A DNA stretch of 64,000 bases from Deltaproteobacteria bacterium (GCA_019310525.1 JAFDEE010000016.1:3394-67393); one strand, 5' to 3'; shown: positions 5,910-62,472, counted from the first letter of the stretch. The notes: generated from the sequence alone by a model not told the origin. Numbers and translations: made by a program.

Positions 5910-7934
5910 ATGACGCCTTCCACCCATCCGGCCGCCCTCACATACCTTGGTGTACCAGGGTATGCATATGGATGGGCCATGCTGGTCATCGGCCTTGGGC
6001 TCTTTGCCTGGATTCTCTCCCGCCGCTACCGGATCCTTTCGGCGGGCCAGTCTGATCCAAGATTCACCTCTATAGGGCAACGTTTAACCGGCCTTGTCAC
6101 TTACGGTCTGATCCAGAAGAGACAACCGAGGTTCCTCTGGGCCGGCATCATCCACATCCTGATCTTTTGGGGTTTCATGGTCCTTGGGATCCGCTCAATG
6201 GACCTGATCACCCAGTCCATCGGGCTGCCCCTGTTGCGCCCTATCCTGGAAGGGGCATTCGGCACATTTTACGGGGGCCTCAAGGATGTCTTCGAACTCC
6301 TGGTCCTCGGGGCCTGCCTTTGGGCCATCCTGAGGCGGGCCGTCCTGAAACCCGCCAGGTACAAAGGAAGCCATCAGTTCGAGGCCTTCCTGGTCCTCGG
6401 CCTGATCTCCTTCCTCATGGTCACGGACATGTTCTACGAGGGAAGCGGCTTGCTGCTTCTGGGCGGGGACGGGGGATGGCTTCCCGCCTCCAGGAGTGCG
6501 GCCTTCCTGCTCTCGGGCTCTTCCTCTCCTTTTTTGCGCTCCATTCACAATGGTTGTTTCTGGTTCCATCTCCTGGCCTTTTTCTTCTTCTTGAACTTCC
6601 TCCCCTTGGGAAAACATTTTCATATCATAACCGCCCTTCCCAACGTCTTTTTCAGGAGGTTGACCAAGGGCTCCCTGAAGCCAGCCCGGTGGGGCGTTGA
6701 GGATATCGAGGAACTGGAGAGCCTGGGAGTGGAAAAATTCGAGGACTTCACCTGGAAGCATATCCTGGACTTCTTTACCTGCACGGAATGCGGGCGTTGC
6801 TCCGACATGTGTCCTGCCAACGCCGTAGGCCGGCCACTGTCCCCCAAATTGCTCACCATGAAGCTGAGAGACCACGGCTACAGGAAATATCCGGTTTTCG
6901 GTTCGGGGAAAGAGAAGGAGGATGGGTCCGCCCTGGTTGGGGATCTCATCACCTTCGAGGAAATTTGGTCCTGTACCACCTGTGGGGCCTGCGAAGAAGA
7001 ATGCCCCGTTTTCATCGAATATATCGACAAGATCGTGGACATGCGCAGGAACCTGATCGAGACGTCCCGGAATCCCAAATCCTTCAACCAGGTGCTGATG
7101 CGCTTTGAAAAGACCGGAAATCCCTTTGGAAAGCCCCCGGCAAAGCGGGCCGAATGGACCGAGGAACTGAGGGAAGAGGTTCCCGTGAAGATCCTTGAAG
7201 AAGGGGACGAGGTGGATGTGCTCTTTTTCGTGGACAGTTACGGTTCCTTCGATCCGGCGGTCCAGGATATCGCCGCCAACATCGCCAGGGGCCTCCACCG
7301 GGCCGGTGTGGATTTCGGAATCCTGGGACCTCTCGAAACGGACACCGGGCACCAGGTCCGGCGCATGGGGGAGGAGGGTCTTTTCCAGTTCCTCGTGGAG
7401 ACAAACCTCGAAACCCTTAAGAGCATCCGGTTCAACCGCATCGTGACCCTGGATCCCCATGCATTCAATACCCTGCTGAAAGACTATCCCGCCCGCTGGG
7501 AAGTCCGGCATTACGTCCCCTTTTTCCTCTCACTCCTTGAAAGAGGCGCCATCAAGCCTATAAGACCCCTTGAGGGGAATAACACCTATACTTACCACGA
7601 TCCGTGCTACCTTGGGAGGCACAACGGGATCTACGATGAGCCCCGCCGTCTCTTGCAGGCACTGCCCGGTATGAATCTGGTGGAAATGGAGAGGAGGCGG
7701 GATCGGAGTTTCTGCTGCGGTGGCGGAGATATCATCCTCTGGCACGAGATCGAGCAGGAGGAGGAGAGGATGGCTTCAAGGAGAATCACGATGGCCAGGG
7801 AGGTCGGGGCGGATACCATCGTGACGGCATGCCCCTTCTGCCTGATTCATTTCGAAGATGCCATCAAGACGGGGGGACTCGAAGAACAGATGAGGGTGGT
7901 GGACCTCATGGCGTTGCTTCTCTCCACCCTTTAG
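5910..7934 (+). CDS. membrane-bound FeS oxidoreductase (HdrD/GlpC-like, CCG domains) associated with EtfAB
   Basis: 674 aa with a hydrophobic N-terminal third containing several predicted TM helices. Two ferredoxin-type motifs (CTECGRCSDMCP, CTTCGACEEECP) and two Cys-rich CCG-type regions (DPCYLGRH...FCCGGGD, TACPFCLIHF). It lies directly upstream of etfB-etfA. Confidence 0.85.
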   Translation: MTPSTHPAALTYLGVPGYAYGWAMLVIGLGLFAWILSRRYRILSAGQSDPRFTSIGQRLTGLVTYGLIQKRQPRFLWAGIIHILIFWGFMVLGIRSMDLITQSIGLPLLRPILEGAFGTFYGGLKDVFELLVLGACLWAILRRAVLKPARYKGSHQFEAFLVLGLISFLMVTDMFYEGSGLLLLGGDGGWLPASRSAAFLLSGSSSPFLRSIHNGCFWFHLLAFFFFLNFLPLGKHFHIITALPNVFFRRLTKGSLKPARWGVEDIEELESLGVEKFEDFTWKHILDFFTCTECGRCSDMCPANAVGRPLSPKLLTMKLRDHGYRKYPVFGSGKEKEDGSALVGDLITFEEIWSCTTCGACEEECPVFIEYIDKIVDMRRNLIETSRNPKSFNQVLMRFEKTGNPFGKPPAKRAEWTEELREEVPVKILEEGDEVDVLFFVDSYGSFDPAVQDIAANIARGLHRAGVDFGILGPLETDTGHQVRRMGEEGLFQFLVETNLETLKSIRFNRIVTLDPHAFNTLLKDYPARWEVRHYVPFFLSLLERGAIKPIRPLEGNNTYTYHDPCYLGRHNGIYDEPRRLLQALPGMNLVEMERRRDRSFCCGGGDIILWHEIEQEEERMASRRITMAREVGADTIVTACPFCLIHFEDAIKTGGLEEQMRVVDLMALLLSTL

Positions 7935-8053
7935 GGATGTTCCAAATGCCCCTATTCCGCCCGTGAAAACATGATTTCAATACATCCCAGTAGTCCCGGG
8001 ATTGGCTGGGATGAGAAGCAACAAACCGAATTCAGAAATCCGGAGGAGGAGGA

Positions 8054-8836
8054 ATGAATATCATCGTGTGCGTCAAAAGGGTCCCCCTGACCCAGGAGGT
8101 GGACCTCCAGATCGGGGCCGGTGGGAAGGATATCCGGAAAGACATGCTGGCTTACGTGATCAACGAGTGGGACAGTTACGCCATCGAGGAGGCGGTCCTC
8201 TTGAAGGAGCAGCACGGCGGTGAGGTCACGGCGGTCACCGTGGGAGGCGAGGAGGACGAGGAAGTGCTGAGACGATGTCTCGCCATGGGCGCGGACCGGG
8301 CCATCCGGATCGACCCCGAGGGGCGGGAGTTGGACGCCTTTTCGACATCGAAGATCCTCTCAGGGGTGATCCGGGACCTGGATTTCGATCTTGTGTTCAC
8401 CGGCGTGCAAGCCGACGACCTCAACGAGGGGGCCGTCGGGGTCATGCTCGCGGAGCACCTGGGCGTAGCCCATGCGGCCGTGGTGAGGGGTTTTGAGCTG
8501 AAGGAGGGGGGTGAAGCGACCCTCAAGGTGGAACTGGAAGGGGGGATCGATGAGGTCGTAAGTATTCCCTTTCCAGCGGTAGTGAGCATTCAGACGGGGA
8601 TCAACGAGCCGCGCTACGTCTCCATCATGGGGATCCGAAAGGCCGCAAAAAAGGAACTCAAGGTGATGAAGGTCGAAGATCTGGGCCTTTCGGATCAAGA
8701 CCTCACCCCAATGATCACGGTCGAGGAACTCTATTTGCCGCCTGAGACGGAGGGGGCGGAGATCCTGGAAGGGGATCCCGGCATGGTCGCGGAACAGATT
8801 CTTCAAATTCTGAAAGAGAAGGGGGTGGCGAAATAA
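8054..8836 (+). CDS. etfB: electron transfer flavoprotein, beta subunit
   Basis: 260 aa. MNIIVCVKRVP start and overall ETF-beta pattern. A GGAGGAGGAGG SD lies upstream, and its stop directly abuts the etfA start (no intergenic gap). Confidence 0.9.
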   Translation: MNIIVCVKRVPLTQEVDLQIGAGGKDIRKDMLAYVINEWDSYAIEEAVLLKEQHGGEVTAVTVGGEEDEEVLRRCLAMGADRAIRIDPEGRELDAFSTSKILSGVIRDLDFDLVFTGVQADDLNEGAVGVMLAEHLGVAHAAVVRGFELKEGGEATLKVELEGGIDEVVSIPFPAVVSIQTGINEPRYVSIMGIRKAAKKELKVMKVEDLGLSDQDLTPMITVEELYLPPETEGAEILEGDPGMVAEQILQILKEKGVAK

Positions 8837-9805
8837 ATGGGAGATATCTTCGTTGTTGTGGAACACAGGCAGGGAGTGATTCGGGAAATCACCCATGAGA
8901 TGCTCTGGAAGGCCGGGGAACTGGGTCGAGCACTCTCCCGGAAGGTGTCGGCCGTTTTGTTTTGCCATGATGGGGCCCGGATGATCGAGGAGATCAGGGA
9001 TCGGGCGGACCGGATTCTCCTGGTGGAAAGCGACGCTTTTAAAAATTTCAGCAGCGACCTTTACAAGGAACTCCTGGCACGTCTCATTGCCGAGCATGCC
9101 CCCTTTCTCACCCTGATGGGCCATACTGCCTGGGGCATGGATCTTGCCCCGGCCCTCAGCGTCAAGAGTGGACTCCCCCTTGCCACGGATTGCATGGATA
9201 TTCTCTGGGAGGGGGACCGTCTTAAGGCGGTCAGGCAGGTCTATTCCGGCAAGCTTTTCTCCAAGGTTTCTTTCAAGGAGGCCCCTGGATACCTTGCAAC
9301 CATAAGGGCGGGGGCCTTTCCACAGGAGAAGTCAGGGGAGCGTTCGGCCGAGGTACAGGAGATCGATCTTCCGGCCGACTTACCCGCTGAACGGAGGCGG
9401 TTCGTTGAATTCGTGGATACGGGCGCGGGAAAAGTGGATATCTCTCAGGCCGACCTCCTTATCTCCGTGGGCCGGGGGATTGGAGAAGAGGAAAACATCG
9501 GGAAGATCAAGGAACTGGCCGACCGCCTGGGAGGAGTGTTGGCCTGTTCCCGTCCTGTGGTGGACAAGAACTGGCTCCCCAAGTACCACCAGGTGGGGAC
9601 CTCCGGAAAATCCGTGAAGCCCAAGGTCTACCTCGCCCTCGGAATCAGCGGGGCCTTCCAGCATGTGGCGGGCATAAGCGGCGCCGGCACCGTGATCGCC
9701 GTAAACAAGGACAAAAAGGCCCCTATTTTCAGGGTCGCCCACTACGGGGTGGTGGACGACCTGTTCAAGGTGGCCGATGCCCTGATGGAAAAAATCGGAG
9801 GATAA
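8837..9805 (+). CDS. etfA: electron transfer flavoprotein, alpha subunit
   Basis: 322 aa. The C-terminal FAD-binding segment ACSRPVVDKNWLPKYHQVGTSGKSVKPKVYLALGISGAFQHVAGI is typical of ETF-alpha. Confidence 0.9.
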   Translation: MGDIFVVVEHRQGVIREITHEMLWKAGELGRALSRKVSAVLFCHDGARMIEEIRDRADRILLVESDAFKNFSSDLYKELLARLIAEHAPFLTLMGHTAWGMDLAPALSVKSGLPLATDCMDILWEGDRLKAVRQVYSGKLFSKVSFKEAPGYLATIRAGAFPQEKSGERSAEVQEIDLPADLPAERRRFVEFVDTGAGKVDISQADLLISVGRGIGEEENIGKIKELADRLGGVLACSRPVVDKNWLPKYHQVGTSGKSVKPKVYLALGISGAFQHVAGISGAGTVIAVNKDKKAPIFRVAHYGVVDDLFKVADALMEKIGG

Positions 9806-16206: not shown

Positions 16207-17337
<1,131 letters not shown>

Positions 17338-34814: not shown

Positions 34815-35123
34815 ATGGCATCAGAAAGAAGCGGCAGGAACGGTTTCCCCACAGGTATTTTTTACCGGCTCGTGGATAATGCAAGACTCGCTTATTCCAT
34901 GATCAGGGATTACTGGGAGGGTGCCTACCACAAAATGCCCTTCTGGACTTTCGCTTCCATATTGTTGGGCGTTGTCTATACCCTTAGTCCCTTGGATGCC
35001 GTTCCCGATTATATCCCAGGATTGGGCCAGATTGATGATGCCCTGGTGCTGGGGTTCTGCCTTTTGCTTTTGGAAAAGGACCTATCGGCCTATAGGCGGT
35101 GGAAAATGGGCCGTTCCGCATAA
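34815..35123 (+). CDS. DUF1232 (YkvA-like) membrane protein
   Basis: 102 aa. The LSPLDAVPDYIPGLGQIDDALVL motif is characteristic of DUF1232. Confidence 0.75.
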   Translation: MASERSGRNGFPTGIFYRLVDNARLAYSMIRDYWEGAYHKMPFWTFASILLGVVYTLSPLDAVPDYIPGLGQIDDALVLGFCLLLLEKDLSAYRRWKMGRSA

Positions 35124-35935
35124 AAATTATCAACTGCATCCAACCCAACCTTGCTATCCTTTTTTTGAATATGCAAAAAGACTCCGATTGAAATAACCGG
35201 CCTTTCCGGGTAGTTGGTTTTGATCTCCAGGAGCCCGCTTGTATTTATGGGGGGGCCTGGAATGTTGGTAAATCGGAGCTTGTACCGCCGGCCCTTTTCC
35301 AGTTCCCTAAGTGAATATTCCACCTTGCCCTCAAGGTCGAAACGCCCCGGGGTGAGCACCAGTTCTGAAGGAAGCTGGCCCCTGATCTCGATCTCTTCGC
35401 TGGCCCGCTCTCCCTCCAGGGCCCTCAGAAAGACCCTGTGGGAAGAGAGGTAGATCGGTCTCTTTACACGGGCCTTGACCGAGACACGGGCCATCCTTAA
35501 AGTGGGATCGTTAGTGTAGATCCTGGCTCCCCAAGTGTGGGATCCGCTGTATCCGGTGGTACGTATCTTCAGGGTGATCTTCCCCTTCCCTCCGGGTGGG
35601 ATGACCTCGTCATAGGAGGCCACGGAGCAACCTCACCCGGGGGCCACCCTACTGATTTCAAGGGGGGCATTACCTGTGTTGGAAACGGTGAAGCTGTAAG
35701 TAATCGTGCTCCCTTCCTCCACTTCGCCGTAATCGAAGATTGTCTGATCAAGGACCATCTTCGGGGCCGATGATACCCTCGGTGTCAAATCCTTCTTCGG
35801 CGTCGGCTTAACCTCCGGCATCGGGGCCTTTATCAGGGATGGATCCTCCACTCCCTTTTCCTGCCTCGGCTCCGGATGACCAGCGAATACGAGAAAAGGA
35901 AGCAAAAGTACTCCTGCGATAAGCCATTTTTTCAA
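35090..35935 (-). CDS. DUF1573-type secreted protein with in-frame TGA (candidate selenocysteine) at 35633-35635
   Basis: TTG start at 35935 follows GGAGG, and a signal peptide MKKWLIAGVLLLPFLVFA is present. The two ORF-track ORFs (35633-35935, 35090-35623) are in one frame, separated only by TGA plus 3 codons. The joined sequence FDYGEVEEGSTITYSFTVSNTGNAPLEISRVAPG[TGA]GCSVASYDEVIPPGGKGKITLKI follows the DUF1573 core, with TGA at the first Cys of SCGCT. Confidence 0.55.
35601..35623 (-). promoter_or_regulatory. SECIS-like hairpin downstream of the in-frame UGA
   Basis: mRNA GUGGCCUC-CUAUGAC-GAGGUCAU: an 8-bp stem (two G-U pairs) and a 7-nt loop containing UG. It starts 10 nt after the UGA. 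Confidence 0.35.
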
Positions 35936-35959
35936 CGTGAAACCTCCACGGATTCCCTA

Positions 35960-36052: not shown

Positions 36053-38281
36053 TCATGAGGAGCCTGCTTTTTGCAGAAGGACCTTGATCTCCCTCAGAAT
36101 GGTTTCGAATCGGTAAGGTTTGGCCACATAGGCCGAGGCCCCTGCCTTGAGCAATTCCTCTTTCTGTCCGTCCTGAAGGTACCCGGTGGCTATGATGACC
36201 TTGAGGCCGGGATTGATACGGAGAAGTTCTTCCAAACACTTGGCCCCACCCATACCCGGCATATTCAGGTCTAGAATTACAAGATCAATGATATCCATGT
36301 GTTTTTGATAGACCTCGAGGCCTTCTTCCCCGGTTTCCGCGCTGATAGCCTTGTAATTATAGGTCTCCAGCATTTCCCTGGTGAGTTCGAGAAGATCTTT
36401 GTCGTCATCCACGAAGAGGATGGTCTCCCCGTTTCCCTGAAAGGTCCCGTCCCCCATCCCTGGTTCGCTTGGCGCCACCCTTTCATCCAGGGCCGCTGGA
36501 AGGTAAATGTGAAAAGTCGTCCCGTGACCGGGCTTACTTTGACAGGTGACGGCTCCTCTGTGGTTCTTAATGATGCTGTAAACAATGGCAAGTCCGAGTC
36601 CTGTCCCTTTGCCTTTTTCCTTGGTCGTGTAAAAGGGGTCGAATATACGTTCGAGAACATCACGGGACATGCCGGAGCCCGTGTCTGAGAGGGTGAGGAG
36701 GACGTAAGGCCCCGGGGTGACACCGGCATGTTTTCGGCAGAATTCCTTGTCCATAGTGAAGTTTTTCGTTTCGATGGTGATCCTTCCCCCCTCACTCATG
36801 GCATCCCTGGCATTGACAACGAGATTCATGATGACCTGCTCGATCTGCATCGGATCCGCGCTGATCTTCATGAGATCCGCGGCAAGGCGCATTTCCATGC
36901 GGATCATCTTGGGAATGACCCGTTCCAGGAGGGAAGATACCCTCAACACGAGATCGTTGAGGTCGATAGGCTTGAGTTCGCTTTCCACTCTTCGGCCGTA
37001 GAGAAGGAGTTGCCGGGTGAGTTCAGCAGCCCTCTGGGCCGATTTTTCGATCTGGCTGAGGGGATGGTAATCCGGATGGTCGGAGGACTTGTTCATCAGG
37101 ACGATCTGAAGATAGCCCGAGATCACCTGAAGGAGATTGTTGAAATCGTGGGCGATCCCACCGGCCAGGGTCCCGACGGCCTCCATCTTCTGGGCCTGGA
37201 AAAGTTCGATCTCCAACTTCTTTCGTTCAGTGACATCCCTGAGAAAATGGATGGAGGCCTTTTGTCCCATCCACCGGATGGGAACCGAGTTCATGTCCAC
37301 CCAAAGTACATCCCCATTTTTGTTGACCGCCCGGAAGGATTCCATGGAGGGAGAGTCTCCCTGTTCCATCATGCTCTGGCACTTGGCCATGACCCAGGCA
37401 CGGTCTTCCGGGAAGACAAGATCCGAAAGGGAGAGGTCAAGCAGTTCTTTTTCGGAATAGCCGAAGAGTTCCAAGGCCTTGGGATTGGGAAAAGTGATGC
37501 CTTGTTCCTGCAGGATGAAGATGGCGTCATTGGCATGATCTACCACCAGCCTGTACTTCTCTTCGGATTCTTCTACCGTACTCTCCAGGCTTTTGGAATA
37601 GGCCTCGAGTTTCCTGCGGGTCGATTCCAGTTCCTCCAGGAGCAGATGTTCGCTGAACCGGAGCCTGTGGTTTACTACAGAGGCTACGAGGGCGATGGCC
37701 AAGGTTGAGAACACGAACATGTTGTTTCCGAGGAAAAGGGAAATCCGGTCCGAAGGACAGATCAGGACAACCGAGAAAATGTAAGCTAGATAGAGAAGAA
37801 TACAGTGAAAGGTCAGGATCTTGGGATGGAGAGGAAGGACCGAGCAAAAACCCAGGAATACCAGGTTTAGGCCGGCATAATAAGAAGTATCATAACCGCC
37901 CGTGTCGGCGATCATCTTGATGATGATCAGGCCCACCAGGTAGAAGGCCGAGATGCCGAGGTAGGAACTTTTATATCCCAGGTTCCAATTTTTATTTGCA
38001 AGATAGAGAAGCAGGCAGCAGAGGGACGCGACTAGCCTGTAAGCCATGAAACGATTGAAAAGGGCTGGGTAGAGCAAGTAATCCAACCACCCGAAAAGGG
38101 GCACCAGCAGGCATCCGAGCAATAGAATAAGGCTGACCCGCTCCCTTATGAGGGGCTCTTGTGCCGCGTTGAAACGGAAAATTTGTTCAGGATCGAATGA
38201 ACGCACCGGCCAATCCCGTAATTCCTGGTGCCCCACGAAACACATTGCCGCGCCCGGTTTTCTTTCATGCAAGAGGCGCAA
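36053..38281 (-). CDS. hybrid sensor histidine kinase (multi-TM sensor - PAS - HisKA - HATPase_c - REC)
   Basis: 742 aa with ~6-7 N-terminal TM helices and a PAS unit (EEKYRLVVDHANDAIFIL...). H-box AHDFNNLLQVISG, N/G boxes (NLVVNARDAM, GTGLGLAIV) and a C-terminal receiver (ILFVDDD...LVILDLNMPGMGG...KP). Confidence 0.85.
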   Translation of the reverse strand: MRLLHERKPGAAMCFVGHQELRDWPVRSFDPEQIFRFNAAQEPLIRERVSLILLLGCLLVPLFGWLDYLLYPALFNRFMAYRLVASLCCLLLYLANKNWNLGYKSSYLGISAFYLVGLIIIKMIADTGGYDTSYYAGLNLVFLGFCSVLPLHPKILTFHCILLYLAYIFSVVLICPSDRISLFLGNNMFVFSTLAIALVASVVNHRLRFSEHLLLEELESTRRKLEAYSKSLESTVEESEEKYRLVVDHANDAIFILQEQGITFPNPKALELFGYSEKELLDLSLSDLVFPEDRAWVMAKCQSMMEQGDSPSMESFRAVNKNGDVLWVDMNSVPIRWMGQKASIHFLRDVTERKKLEIELFQAQKMEAVGTLAGGIAHDFNNLLQVISGYLQIVLMNKSSDHPDYHPLSQIEKSAQRAAELTRQLLLYGRRVESELKPIDLNDLVLRVSSLLERVIPKMIRMEMRLAADLMKISADPMQIEQVIMNLVVNARDAMSEGGRITIETKNFTMDKEFCRKHAGVTPGPYVLLTLSDTGSGMSRDVLERIFDPFYTTKEKGKGTGLGLAIVYSIIKNHRGAVTCQSKPGHGTTFHIYLPAALDERVAPSEPGMGDGTFQGNGETILFVDDDKDLLELTREMLETYNYKAISAETGEEGLEVYQKHMDIIDLVILDLNMPGMGGAKCLEELLRINPGLKVIIATGYLQDGQKEELLKAGASAYVAKPYRFETILREIKVLLQKAGSS

Positions 38282-60331: not shown

Positions 60332-60344
60332 AATTCGATATAGT

Positions 60345-60525
60345 CCACGCAATTCTTCAGAGCAGGAGAAAGGGAAAGCGGTGAGAGGCCGCTGCTGCCC
60401 CGCAACTGTATTCCCGATTCTCGAACAATGAGAATCCGTGTCCAGGCCATTAGAGCCACTGTTCCGTAAAGGTTGGAATGGGAAGGCGGTCGGGACCGGG
60501 AAAGCCAGGAAACCTTGCCTGTTCT
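60345..60525 (+). promoter_or_regulatory. cobalamin (B12) riboswitch 2, canonical size
   Basis: AAAGGGAAAGCGGUGAGAGGCCGCUGCUGCCCCGCAACUGU, GCCACUG (60455-60461), GGGAAGGC (60480-60487), and B12 box AGCCAGGAAACCUUGCC (60503-60519). Confidence 0.85.
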
Positions 60526-60542
60526 TCTTTTGCCGAGGCCCA

Positions 60543-60589: not shown

Positions 60590-60740
60590 GAAGCCGCCAC
60601 TCCCGCCGTGTTTTTCCCTTACCGCACCCTCCGCTTCGCTGACCCTTGGAAAATCCAGAGTCGTTCCGGTTCCTCTGGAATAAGAAGAGAAGTCACCAGT
60701 CGATTAAGCCATGAACAAAAAAAGAGAGAGGAGAAATGTC

Positions 60741-61541
60741 ATGCCAAGAAAGATCTGTTTAATGCTCTTTTTATGGATGTTAGCCATGTTGAGTAGCTTG
60801 CCTTCAACCGTCGTCCTGGCAGGGCCCTATGCCCCCGCCGCCGGCCAGCCCGGATCCACGGCCATTCACATGGACAGTTCGGACTTCGTGGGTTGGGCAA
60901 CGGGCTGGATTGATTACTTACCGGGAGAAGAGGTGGATTCGAAATGGCAGACTCCAGAGAAGGCCCTGGGGAAGGCTGTGGGCACCTCCTATGATATCGT
61001 AACCCTCGGGCGGGGTGGGCGGATCACAATGACCTTCGATACCCCCATTGCAGACGGGGAGGGTTGGGATTTCGCAGTTTTCGAGAATTCCTTCAACGAT
61101 ACCTTCCTGGAATTGGGTTACGTGGAGGTTTCCTCGAACGGCGTGGATTTCTTCCGGTTCCCGAACGATTCCCTCACGCCTGACCCGGTTGGAGGGTTCG
61201 GGGCGCTGGACCCCACGAATATCACCGGGTTGGCCGGCAAGTACCGCCAGGGCTACGGAACACCGTTTGACCTCGGAGTCCTTGATGGTGTGGATCCCCT
61301 GCTTGATGTCCACAATGTGGGCTGGGTACGGATCATCGATATCATAGGGGATGGGACATACCTGGATACATCAGGGGATATCATCTACGACCCTTATCCT
61401 ACAGTGGGAAGCGCTGGTTTTGATCTGGATGCCGTGGGAGTGATAAACGCCGCCCCCGTGCCTCTCCCCGGGACCGCCTTTTTGCTGGGAAGCGGCTTGT
61501 TCGGTCTCCTGGGAATGAGAAGAAGGTTTCGTTCTCGATGA
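60741..61541 (+). CDS. PEP-CTERM-anchored secreted protein of unknown function
   Basis: ATG at 60741 follows GAGGAG, and a signal peptide is present ([23 protein letters not shown]). The C-terminal sorting signal [27 protein letters not shown] has the PEP-CTERM architecture (P-rich motif, TM helix, Arg cluster). Confidence 0.75.
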
Positions 61542-61593: not shown

Positions 61594-62472
61594 ATGAGAA
61601 GACTTGTCTTTTATTTATTCATGTTATCCATGTTATCCATTTTACTGCCGTTTCAGACCCATGCGGCCGTGGCTACTTTTGACGACAATCCGCTTGCCCC
61701 CAACAGCCATTGGGGAGGTGCCGGTTCCACAGAGACCGGCTTTGTCAGCGGAGATGCCTACTTCCCGCACCATGCTGACACATACTCCTGGCACGGCTTC
61801 GTCTATTCCAACGAGACCGATACCACGACACCGGGATACACCAACCAGTTCAGCGCCATTACCGGTGGAGGAGTATACGGTTCTTCCAATTACGGAGTGG
61901 GCTACATCCCCCTGGACTGGCAGAATGGAACCTATGACCCGGTTCCACAGACCCTGAGCTTCGGCGCCTCCTCGGGGGAGGACTACAACACCGTCATTTC
62001 AGGGGCCTACTTCACCAATACCACCTATGCATATCTTTCCATGAGGGACGGGGATTCCTTTGCAAAGAAATTCGGTGGATCCACAGGGGATGATCCTGAC
62101 TGGTTCAAGCTGATCATTAAAGGGATCGACGAAAACGGGGACTATACCGGAACCTTGGAGTTTTATCTTGCGGATTTCCGGTTTGAAGACGACTCCCAGG
62201 ATTACATCGTGGATGACTGGACCTGGGTGGACCTCTCCGGCCTGGGTGCTGTTATCGGGCTGGAATTCAGCATCGATTCTTCGGACAAAGGACAGTGGGG
62301 AATAAACACACCCGCCTACTTTGCAATAGACGATCTTAACGGCGTACCTCCTTCTCCTGTCCCCCTGCCTGCTTCTCTGTGGTTGCTGGGCTCCGGTCTC
62401 CTTGGCTTGATCGGTGTAAGGAGACGCAGCCTGAAAGAGCCCGGAAAAACCGGCAACCCGTTGAACCGGTAA
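61594..62472 (+). CDS. DUF4465-like secreted protein with PEP-CTERM anchor
   Basis: Signal peptide. ATFDDNPLAPNSHWGG...SWHGFVYSNETDTTTPGYTNQFSAITGGGVYGSSNYGVGY matches the DUF4465 pattern I recall. The C-terminal VPLPASLWLLGSGLLGLIGVRRR is a PEP-CTERM signal. Confidence 0.7.
   Translation: MRRLVFYLFMLSMLSILLPFQTHAAVATFDDNPLAPNSHWGGAGSTETGFVSGDAYFPHHADTYSWHGFVYSNETDTTTPGYTNQFSAITGGGVYGSSNYGVGYIPLDWQNGTYDPVPQTLSFGASSGEDYNTVISGAYFTNTTYAYLSMRDGDSFAKKFGGSTGDDPDWFKLIIKGIDENGDYTGTLEFYLADFRFEDDSQDYIVDDWTWVDLSGLGAVIGLEFSIDSSDKGQWGINTPAYFAIDDLNGVPPSPVPLPASLWLLGSGLLGLIGVRRRSLKEPGKTGNPLNR

Follow-up and report, generated by a model that had tools for sequence, protein, structure and literature searches.

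An in-frame TGA in a deltaproteobacterial DUF1573 gene: a probable selenocysteine codon in a mis-annotated OS_HP2 family member, followed by two conserved hairpins

In the 64,000-nucleotide stretch of DNA analysed here, from Deltaproteobacteria bacterium (GCA_019310525.1, JAFDEE010000016.1:3394-67393; hereafter the window), two open reading frames (ORFs) on the minus strand raise the question of whether the TGA between them ends a gene or encodes selenocysteine (Sec). The ORF 35935..35633 (100 amino acids, TTG start) and the ORF 35623..35090 (177 amino acids) lie in a common frame and are separated only by TGA (35635..35633) and the three sense codons GGT TGC TCC. An earlier reading made from the sequence alone (the sequence-only reading) took this TGA for a Sec codon and proposed a new selenoprotein. 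Our analysis gives a probability of roughly 0.9 to the reading that 35935..35090 is one OS_HP2/DUF1573 gene in which UGA is recoded to Sec, and whose product is an exported protein with two β-sandwich domains. Decoding as Sec is supported by the single frame, a protein domain that runs across the UGA, the conservation of the TGA among relatives, the presence of Cys at the same column in homologs, and covarying RNA structure.

On the minus strand, 35935..35090 forms a single frame whose sole interruption is the TGA, just as the sequence-only reading had described it, down to the coordinates. The predicted gene starts at TTG (35935..35933), carries the putative Sec-UGA at 35635..35633 and stops at TAG (35092..35090), yielding a product of 281 residues with Sec101 counted. 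Read through, the peptide at the site is ...ISRVAPG-U-GCSVASYDEVIPPGGKGK..., and over a longer span ...NAPLEISRVAPG-U-GCSVASYDEVIPPGGKGKITL... The geometry of a bare ORF pair is no better than chance, as 74 in-frame TGAs of the window have 60 or more open codons both before and after them. Among these 74 TGA-split frames in the window no second selenoprotein was apparent, the long ones being adjacent genes that share a frame. The TGA studied here is singled out from the 74 because the DUF1573 domain is continuous across it. With Sec replaced by Cys for profile searches, Pfam DUF1573 (PF07610, gathering score 26.1 bits) matches residues 62-154 with 65.2 bits (E=5.8e-18) over profile positions 3-95 of 98, and the TGA, at residue 101, falls mid-way in this one domain; the assertion that a stop here would cut a single domain in half is thus borne out. 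NCBIfam model NF041425 is the top match by far for the same Cys-substituted query (97.7 bits, E=3.7e-28, residues 63-158), and it also matches 6/6 aligned orthologs, with a best E of 1.6e-34. The features of the locus are as follows.

35943..35947, minus strand: Shine-Dalgarno-like GGAGG, 7 nt 5′ of the TTG, read directly from the sequence
35090..35935, minus strand: complete predicted OS_HP2/DUF1573 selenoprotein gene, from its single frame, the Pfam domain across the TGA, and orthologs with the same architecture
35876..35935, minus strand: signal-peptide-like N-terminal segment MKKWLIAGVLLLPFLVFAG..., by a hydrophobic 10-mer rule
35474..35752, minus strand: DUF1573 (PF07610)/OS_HP2 (NF041425) β-sandwich, residues 62-154, from the profile matches given above
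35633..35635, minus strand: in-frame TGA, predicted Sec codon for residue 101, position 1 of U-G-C, present as TGA in 167/168 loci and in two further assemblies
35627..35629, minus strand: TGC for Cys103, the partner of Sec in U-G-C, with a Cys codon (TGT or TGC) in each of the 129 loci matched by pattern
35601..35623, minus strand: hairpin 1, an 8-bp stem GUGGCCUC/GAGGUCAU with the 7-nt loop CUAUGAC, from folding and family covariation
35583..35600, minus strand: hairpin 2, over the codons for Ile-Pro-Pro-Gly-Gly-Lys/Glu, with a GG-containing apical loop, from family pairing and covariation
35162..35464, minus strand: conserved C-terminal domain, residues ~158-258, with KTNYPERP (used as a search pattern) at its end, a predicted second β-sandwich, from the ortholog alignment and the structural model of homolog P0010

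The TGA is shared by nearly all close relatives. The 168 loci compared are the best 80 matches from each of a genome and a metagenome collection, together with directly fetched loci, wherever the site could be located; the 160 collected loci come almost entirely from Desulfobacterota metagenome-assembled genomes (Desulfobacteraceae, Desulfatiglandales, Syntrophales), with the isolate NaphS2 in addition. These relatives are 37-52% identical to the window protein, and the Sec column holds TGA in 167 of the 168 and TGC in one, locus L105. Three distant homologs (P0010, P0011 and P0013) have C-G-C at this column, so the TGA does stand at the first Cys of a CGC motif, as had been claimed. In the NaphS2 ortholog (locus L084, on ADZZ01000271.1) the peptide across the site reads ...VRPG-U-GCTVASFDTAVPPGGEGK. 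Nearly all of the nearest database homologs, namely P0001-P0009 and P0012, look truncated and have the N-terminus V/M-A-x-[FY]-D; at all of their fetched loci an upstream ORF ends 9 nt 5′ of the called start, and TGA occupies the equal column, reading G-U-G-C-[S/A]-V-A. In the consensus DNA of the family, the variable sites are spaced three bases apart and in frame on both flanks of the TGA, and U-G is invariant at the Cys103 codon columns of the family alignment. Two near-identical strains, L004 (a Joint Genome Institute (JGI) metagenome) and L170 (GCA_019306415.1), keep the TGA and differ from the window elsewhere within the gene. The 168 family genes themselves end with TGA in 76 cases, TAA in 49 and TAG in 35; the genetic code is taken to be standard because TGA is an ordinary terminator in 76/168 of them.

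L105 (Ga0209705_10079953, nt 649), which alone of the 168 close relatives has Cys (TGC), keeps 6/7 pairs of hairpin 1 and 5/5 of hairpin 2; it has the look of a recent change from Sec to Cys that left a fossil selenocysteine insertion sequence (SECIS) behind. In L173 (JGI Ga0451493_0109587) a Cys-form P0013 gene with C-G-C (nt 731) is directly followed by a Sec-form paralog with U-G-C and TGA (nt 1846), and a hairpin-1-like sequence is found in both of these tandem copies.

RNA structure after the UGA is described here in columns counted with the U of UGA as column 1; column n lies at window coordinate 35636 - n. In the window, hairpin 1 pairs columns 13-20 with 28-35, its first base being the 10th nt past the UGA, and has a folding energy of -10.5 kcal/mol on its own. 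The single-sequence fold of the post-UGA region (-25.8 kcal/mol) has z=-0.45 against dinucleotide shuffles, and the window fold alone is therefore uninformative, being no better than the shuffles. The family carries the signal. When synonymous codons were permuted within each gene, so that neither the protein nor the codon usage changed, the 54 nt past the UGA gave a mean z of -1.18 (standard error 0.06) over 154 unique genes, as against -0.34 to +0.39 for nine control segments of those genes; the window's own value is -0.98. For hairpin 1, 85.9% of the cells in the family alignment are paired, compared with 28-48% in slid registers, and 49 cells are doubly changed, compared with 7-26; its covariation was matched by 0/500 shuffles. 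Synonymous third positions in its stem are near frozen (column 18 C in 127/139 sequences, column 30 G in 131/139, column 33 C in 118/139), while the adjoining four-fold sites vary freely. At the Lys codon of columns 28-30, AAG is used in 52/139 sequences and AAA is outside the four commonest codons, whereas AAA is preferred at columns 55-57.

Hairpin 2 pairs columns 36 and 38-41 with columns 46-49 and 51 around an N-G-G-N loop, and 95.8% of its cells are paired across the family. Among 139 unique sequences, the pair 36-51 is C-G in 73, U-A in 32, U-G in 28 and mismatched in 6, and the pair 39-48 is C-G in 94, U-A in 19 and U-G in 5. As both columns of each pair are third codon positions, drift in third-position GC content is a clear confounder; even so, the two rank 1 and 2 of all 210 third-position pairs in GC/AU correlation, with phi values of 0.60 and 0.55 over a background mean of 0.02 (standard deviation 0.16). 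The window's hairpin 2 is weakened to 5 bp and an internal loop (-8.2 kcal/mol), because Lys (AAG) replaces Glu. Taken as one two-hairpin structure, the family element reaches 90% pairing, compared with 49-59% in slid registers, its covariation is matched by 0/500 shuffles, and each hairpin separately exceeds its controls. These comparisons show that both hairpins are under selection at the RNA level. RNAalifold, run on 139 sequences, recovered no more of the element than the 4-bp C/G core of hairpin 2, and Rfam returned no SECIS or other relevant match, either at the gathering threshold or at E<=10. A further candidate, the long lower stem of the window's minimum free energy (MFE) fold, which includes the UGA (CCGGGUG/CACCCGG), is 72% paired, equal to shuffles and slid registers, with zero compensatory changes; it is an artefact of Pro/Gly codons and was rejected. 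The continuity of the domain, the conservation of the TGA at family level (167/168) and the conservation of RNA structure are each far beyond chance.

Other accounts of the TGA have to explain the same observations. Gene callers split the locus into two genes, with the 100-residue ORF stopping at the TGA and the 177-residue ORF starting at GTG 35623 by way of a GAGG: P0001-P0009 and P0012 all start at the GTG position, and P0003 (Desulfatiglans) was deposited as a 'conserved hypothetical protein'. The window does show GAGG, then 7 nt, then GTG, and GTG occupies the internal-start position in 107/168 loci. In 61/168 loci, however, the codon there is not start-capable (ACG, GCG, GTC and others), and the GAGG arises automatically from UGA-GGN (Sec-Gly), which is why it is invariant. 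The GUG also lies inside the stem of hairpin 1, where pairing explains its preference over other Val codons, and a split would halve the DUF1573 β-sandwich and leave the C-terminal part without a signal peptide. The independent start at GTG 35623, which the sequence-only reading had itself raised as a challenge, is accordingly rejected as a family-wide explanation, and we consider two genes very unlikely at this locus. A pseudogene, or a sequencing or assembly error in a Cys codon, would need only a one-base change from TGC or TGT to TGA, and the relative L105 does have TGC. Set against this, the TGA recurs in two further assemblies of near-identical strains that differ elsewhere in the gene, and in 167/168 divergent relatives with coding constraint on both flanks; on this comparison of sequences, an assembly error is excluded for practical purposes, and the chance that the codon is an error or the mark of a decayed gene is close to nil.

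The UGA might instead be read without Sec, either under an alternative code (UGA as Trp or Gly) or by near-cognate insertion of Trp or Cys. Near-cognate suppression of Sec-UGA under selenium limitation does occur in bacteria, and the Sec machinery was not found within the window. Yet TGA terminates 76/168 family genes as well as adjacent genes of the window, for example the Tgt ORF at 16207; the aligned residue of the homologs is Cys, making the Sec/Cys pair that is the hallmark of Sec; a conserved, covarying structure follows the UGA immediately; and the family is curated as a selenoprotein family. We regard such readings as improbable. Recoding of the UGA to Sec within a single protein, as first proposed from the sequence, is by comparison strongly supported by the relatives.

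Several points weigh against decoding as Sec. The NF041425 score lies 2.3 bits under the curated cutoff of 100, which is an operational naming threshold and not a biological criterion. No selA, selB, selD or tRNA-Sec is present in the 64-kb window, as judged from a Pfam map of ~40 genes and from ARAGORN, which found no tRNA, and we infer the Sec-decoding capacity of the host from its relatives, its lineage and the family-level evidence; Deltaproteobacteria have been called selenoprotein-rich in a 2022 review (PMC9312934). The few Cys-form DNA controls are mixed, L105 and the P0013 paralog keeping the hairpins and P0010 and P0011 pairing more weakly, so that they are not cleanly without hairpins. 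Neither hairpin of the window combines all four features of the published bacterial SECIS (bSECIS) model. Our reading of the literature turned up no 75Se labelling, mass spectrometry or other experimental verification of an OS_HP2 member, and the evidence presented here is all computational.

The bSECIS model asks for a loop of 3-9 nt on a stem of 4-16 bp, a G in the first two loop positions, a UGA-to-loop spacing of 16-37 nt and an MFE of at most -7.5 kcal/mol (PMC13188914, Fig. 2 legend). Loop and stem sizes are in range for both window hairpins: 8 bp and a 7-nt loop in hairpin 1, 5 bp with an internal loop and a loop of 3-4 nt in hairpin 2, the loops of which measure 3-6 nt across the family. 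A G is found in the first two loop positions in 16/139 sequences for hairpin 1 and in 138/139 for hairpin 2; in the window, the loop of hairpin 1 starts with CU, and so has no such G, and that of hairpin 2 is GGA(G). The spacing from UGA to loop is 17 nt for hairpin 1 in the window (15-19 nt in the family) and 39 nt for hairpin 2 (37-39 nt in the family), which is at or just past the limit. The energy threshold is reached by 58% of the family for hairpin 1 and by 98.6% for hairpin 2, and by both hairpins of the window. All four features coincide for hairpin 1 in 2/139 sequences, and for hairpin 2 the limiting one is spacing. Hairpin 2 thus fits the published criteria better than hairpin 1. The sequence-only reading had presented hairpin 1 as a bacterial SECIS by position and size; the 8-bp hairpin exists, is conserved and has canonical spacing, but it lacks the loop guanosine of the model, and the better candidate, which that reading did not mention, lies next to it.

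The family element resembles the bSECISearch model in being a stem-loop within the coding region directly 3′ of the Sec-UGA, and differs from it in consisting of a conserved tandem pair of hairpins and not a single stem-loop. One explanation, which we put forward tentatively and hold to be possible rather than probable, is that the Sec signal of OS_HP2 is a tandem element outside the single-stem model, in which hairpin 1 would act as a structured spacer that presents the GG-loop hairpin 2, at 37-39 nt, to SelB. As in the established bacterial pathway, SelB-GTP with bound Sec-tRNA(Sec) would be recruited by the mRNA structure directly 3′ of the UGA, here perhaps formed by the two adjacent conserved hairpins within 52 nt of that codon.

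The predicted protein consists of an N-terminal signal-peptide-like segment, the DUF1573 domain with the U-G-C motif, and the C-terminal domain. A hydrophobic 10-mer (Kyte-Doolittle mean of at least 2.0) occurs within the first 35 residues in 139/139 unique complete N-termini of the family, and the OS_HP2-type clade is probably exported, because such a signal-peptide-like segment is present in all 139. The Cys-form homolog P0010 was modelled as a stand-in for the window protein, and the model (mean pLDDT, the predicted local distance difference test, 88.9) shows tandem β-sandwiches; C-G-C (residues 81-83) sits in the short turn, itself not a strand, that links strands 72-79 and 84-88. A Foldseek search of the PDB gave only generic HYDIN/ASH-type immunoglobulin (Ig) repeats and 2qsv, with no functional lead; a PDB sequence search gave nothing significant, and papers on what DUF1573 does yielded nothing mechanistic. 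In the mature protein, Sec101-Gly-Cys103 may be part of a short exposed turn that joins two strands of the first Ig-like domain. The most likely role for a U-G-C motif placed outside the cytoplasm would be that of a selenenylsulfide redox centre, or of a centre binding soft metals or metalloids, a proposal that follows from C-x-C chemistry and the exposed position in the P0010 model. SelB dependence, the choice of hairpin bound by SelB, export and the chemistry of U-G-C are all points that we infer.

Between the signal peptide and DUF1573, the window protein has a ~30-residue Pro/Lys/Glu-rich linker HPEPRQEKGVEDPSLIKAPMPEVKPTPKKDLTPRVSSAP (window 35762-35872, minus strand, residues ~22-58). 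The aligned orthologs are without this linker, and the C-terminal tail of the window protein is divergent too.

The family to which this gene belongs is already on record, and the proposal of a new selenoprotein family does not stand. OS_HP2 was among six new selenoprotein families found in the Olavius symbiont metagenome (Zhang & Gladyshev 2007, PMC1976440), and the 2008 Global Ocean Sampling (GOS) paper by Zhang & Gladyshev lists 'OS_HP2 | pfam07610 | UxC' with 354 Cys homologs (PMC2398784). A 'DUF1573 domain-containing protein, UGC' is tabulated in reviews of 2022 (PMC9312934) and 2026 (PMC13188914), and NCBIfam holds NF041425 as a curated model under the name 'OS_HP2 family (seleno)protein'. 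The gene is a somewhat divergent, mis-annotated member of this known, computationally predicted selenoprotein family. It shares with OS_HP2 the PF07610 domain, Sec at the first Cys of C-x-C, Cys-form homologs, a stem-loop 3′ of the UGA and a deltaproteobacterial host lineage. The window member differs in its score (97.7 bits against the cutoff of 100), in its ~30-residue Pro/Lys-rich linker and in having Lys for Glu in PPGG-K/E-GK, and in public records its OS_HP2 relatives appear as split or truncated hypothetical proteins.

The Cys-form DUF1573 proteins (P0010, P0011, P0013 and PDB 2qsv, the last from Porphyromonas gingivalis and with no function assigned) resemble the Sec forms in their Ig-like (HYDIN/ASH/PapD-like) β-sandwich, in their N-terminal signal peptide and in a C-G-C turn followed by ..V-A-x-F-D-x-x-I-P-P-G-G.. 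They differ in having Cys for Sec, and often at least three tandem domains. The closest full-length Cys forms, P0010 and P0011 (L171/L172 and L175), lie between genes for a Mur ligase and a TonB-dependent receptor (Plug/β-barrel), unlike the Sec forms. Roughly one locus in three has, on the same strand, a gene for a Rex-like redox-sensing repressor upstream of the ortholog (48 loci) and one for RNase H downstream of it (52 loci); genes for a flavin reductase and a rhodanese-like protein are frequent neighbours too (29 and 27 loci). This Rex-like/RNase H context, seen in L001-L003 and ~50 other loci, is not that of the window gene, which is flanked by the gene for a hybrid histidine kinase/response regulator (36053..38281, minus strand) and, in convergent orientation, by a DUF1232 gene. 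Scans for promoters and terminators around the selenoprotein gene gave results at chance level only.

A few further features were observed in passing. In locus L007, nt 700-1908, a family III CoA-transferase frame carries an in-frame TAG (1030-1032; ..RFKID*ETISELNPKIIY..) with homology on both sides; candidate explanations are a pseudogene, an error and recoding of the TAG. On the plus strand of the window, tandem cobalamin riboswitch aptamers (Rfam RF00174; 59283-59453 with 37.7 bits and 60336-60530 with 73.8 bits) lie upstream of an ORF with no Pfam match (60711-61541) and a DUF4465 gene (61594-62472); the genes led by RF00174 probably form a B12-regulated uptake or binding operon. Also on the plus strand, 5910-9805 begins with the gene for an HdrD-like protein (5910-7934) that contains 4Fe-4S clusters and a CCG domain; the genes for EtfB (8054-8836) and EtfA (8837-9805) come next, an arrangement typical of anaerobic deltaproteobacterial electron-transfer modules that fits the lineage. 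Other genes of the window encode Obg, SecDF, Tgt/QueA, Pel and Lpx proteins, GlyS and sensor kinases.

For annotation, the two ORFs should be merged, here and in the relatives (for example P0003 and the gene calls in L001-L009, L004 and L170), and described as one OS_HP2 selenoprotein. At the level of the family the gain is small, because a DUF1573 U-x-C selenoprotein has been known since 2007-2008. What is added is scale, with ~170 loci across Desulfobacterota that use Sec near-exclusively; evidence, from relatives, of a two-hairpin element 3′ of the UGA, in which the best fit to a SECIS is not the obvious hairpin; and localisation, since the family appears to be exported, judging from its N-termini. 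In this clade Sec is used almost without exception (167/168), in what appears to be an exported Ig-fold protein, and, if the tandem arrangement proves true, the OS_HP2 element would represent a distinct class of bacterial SECIS.

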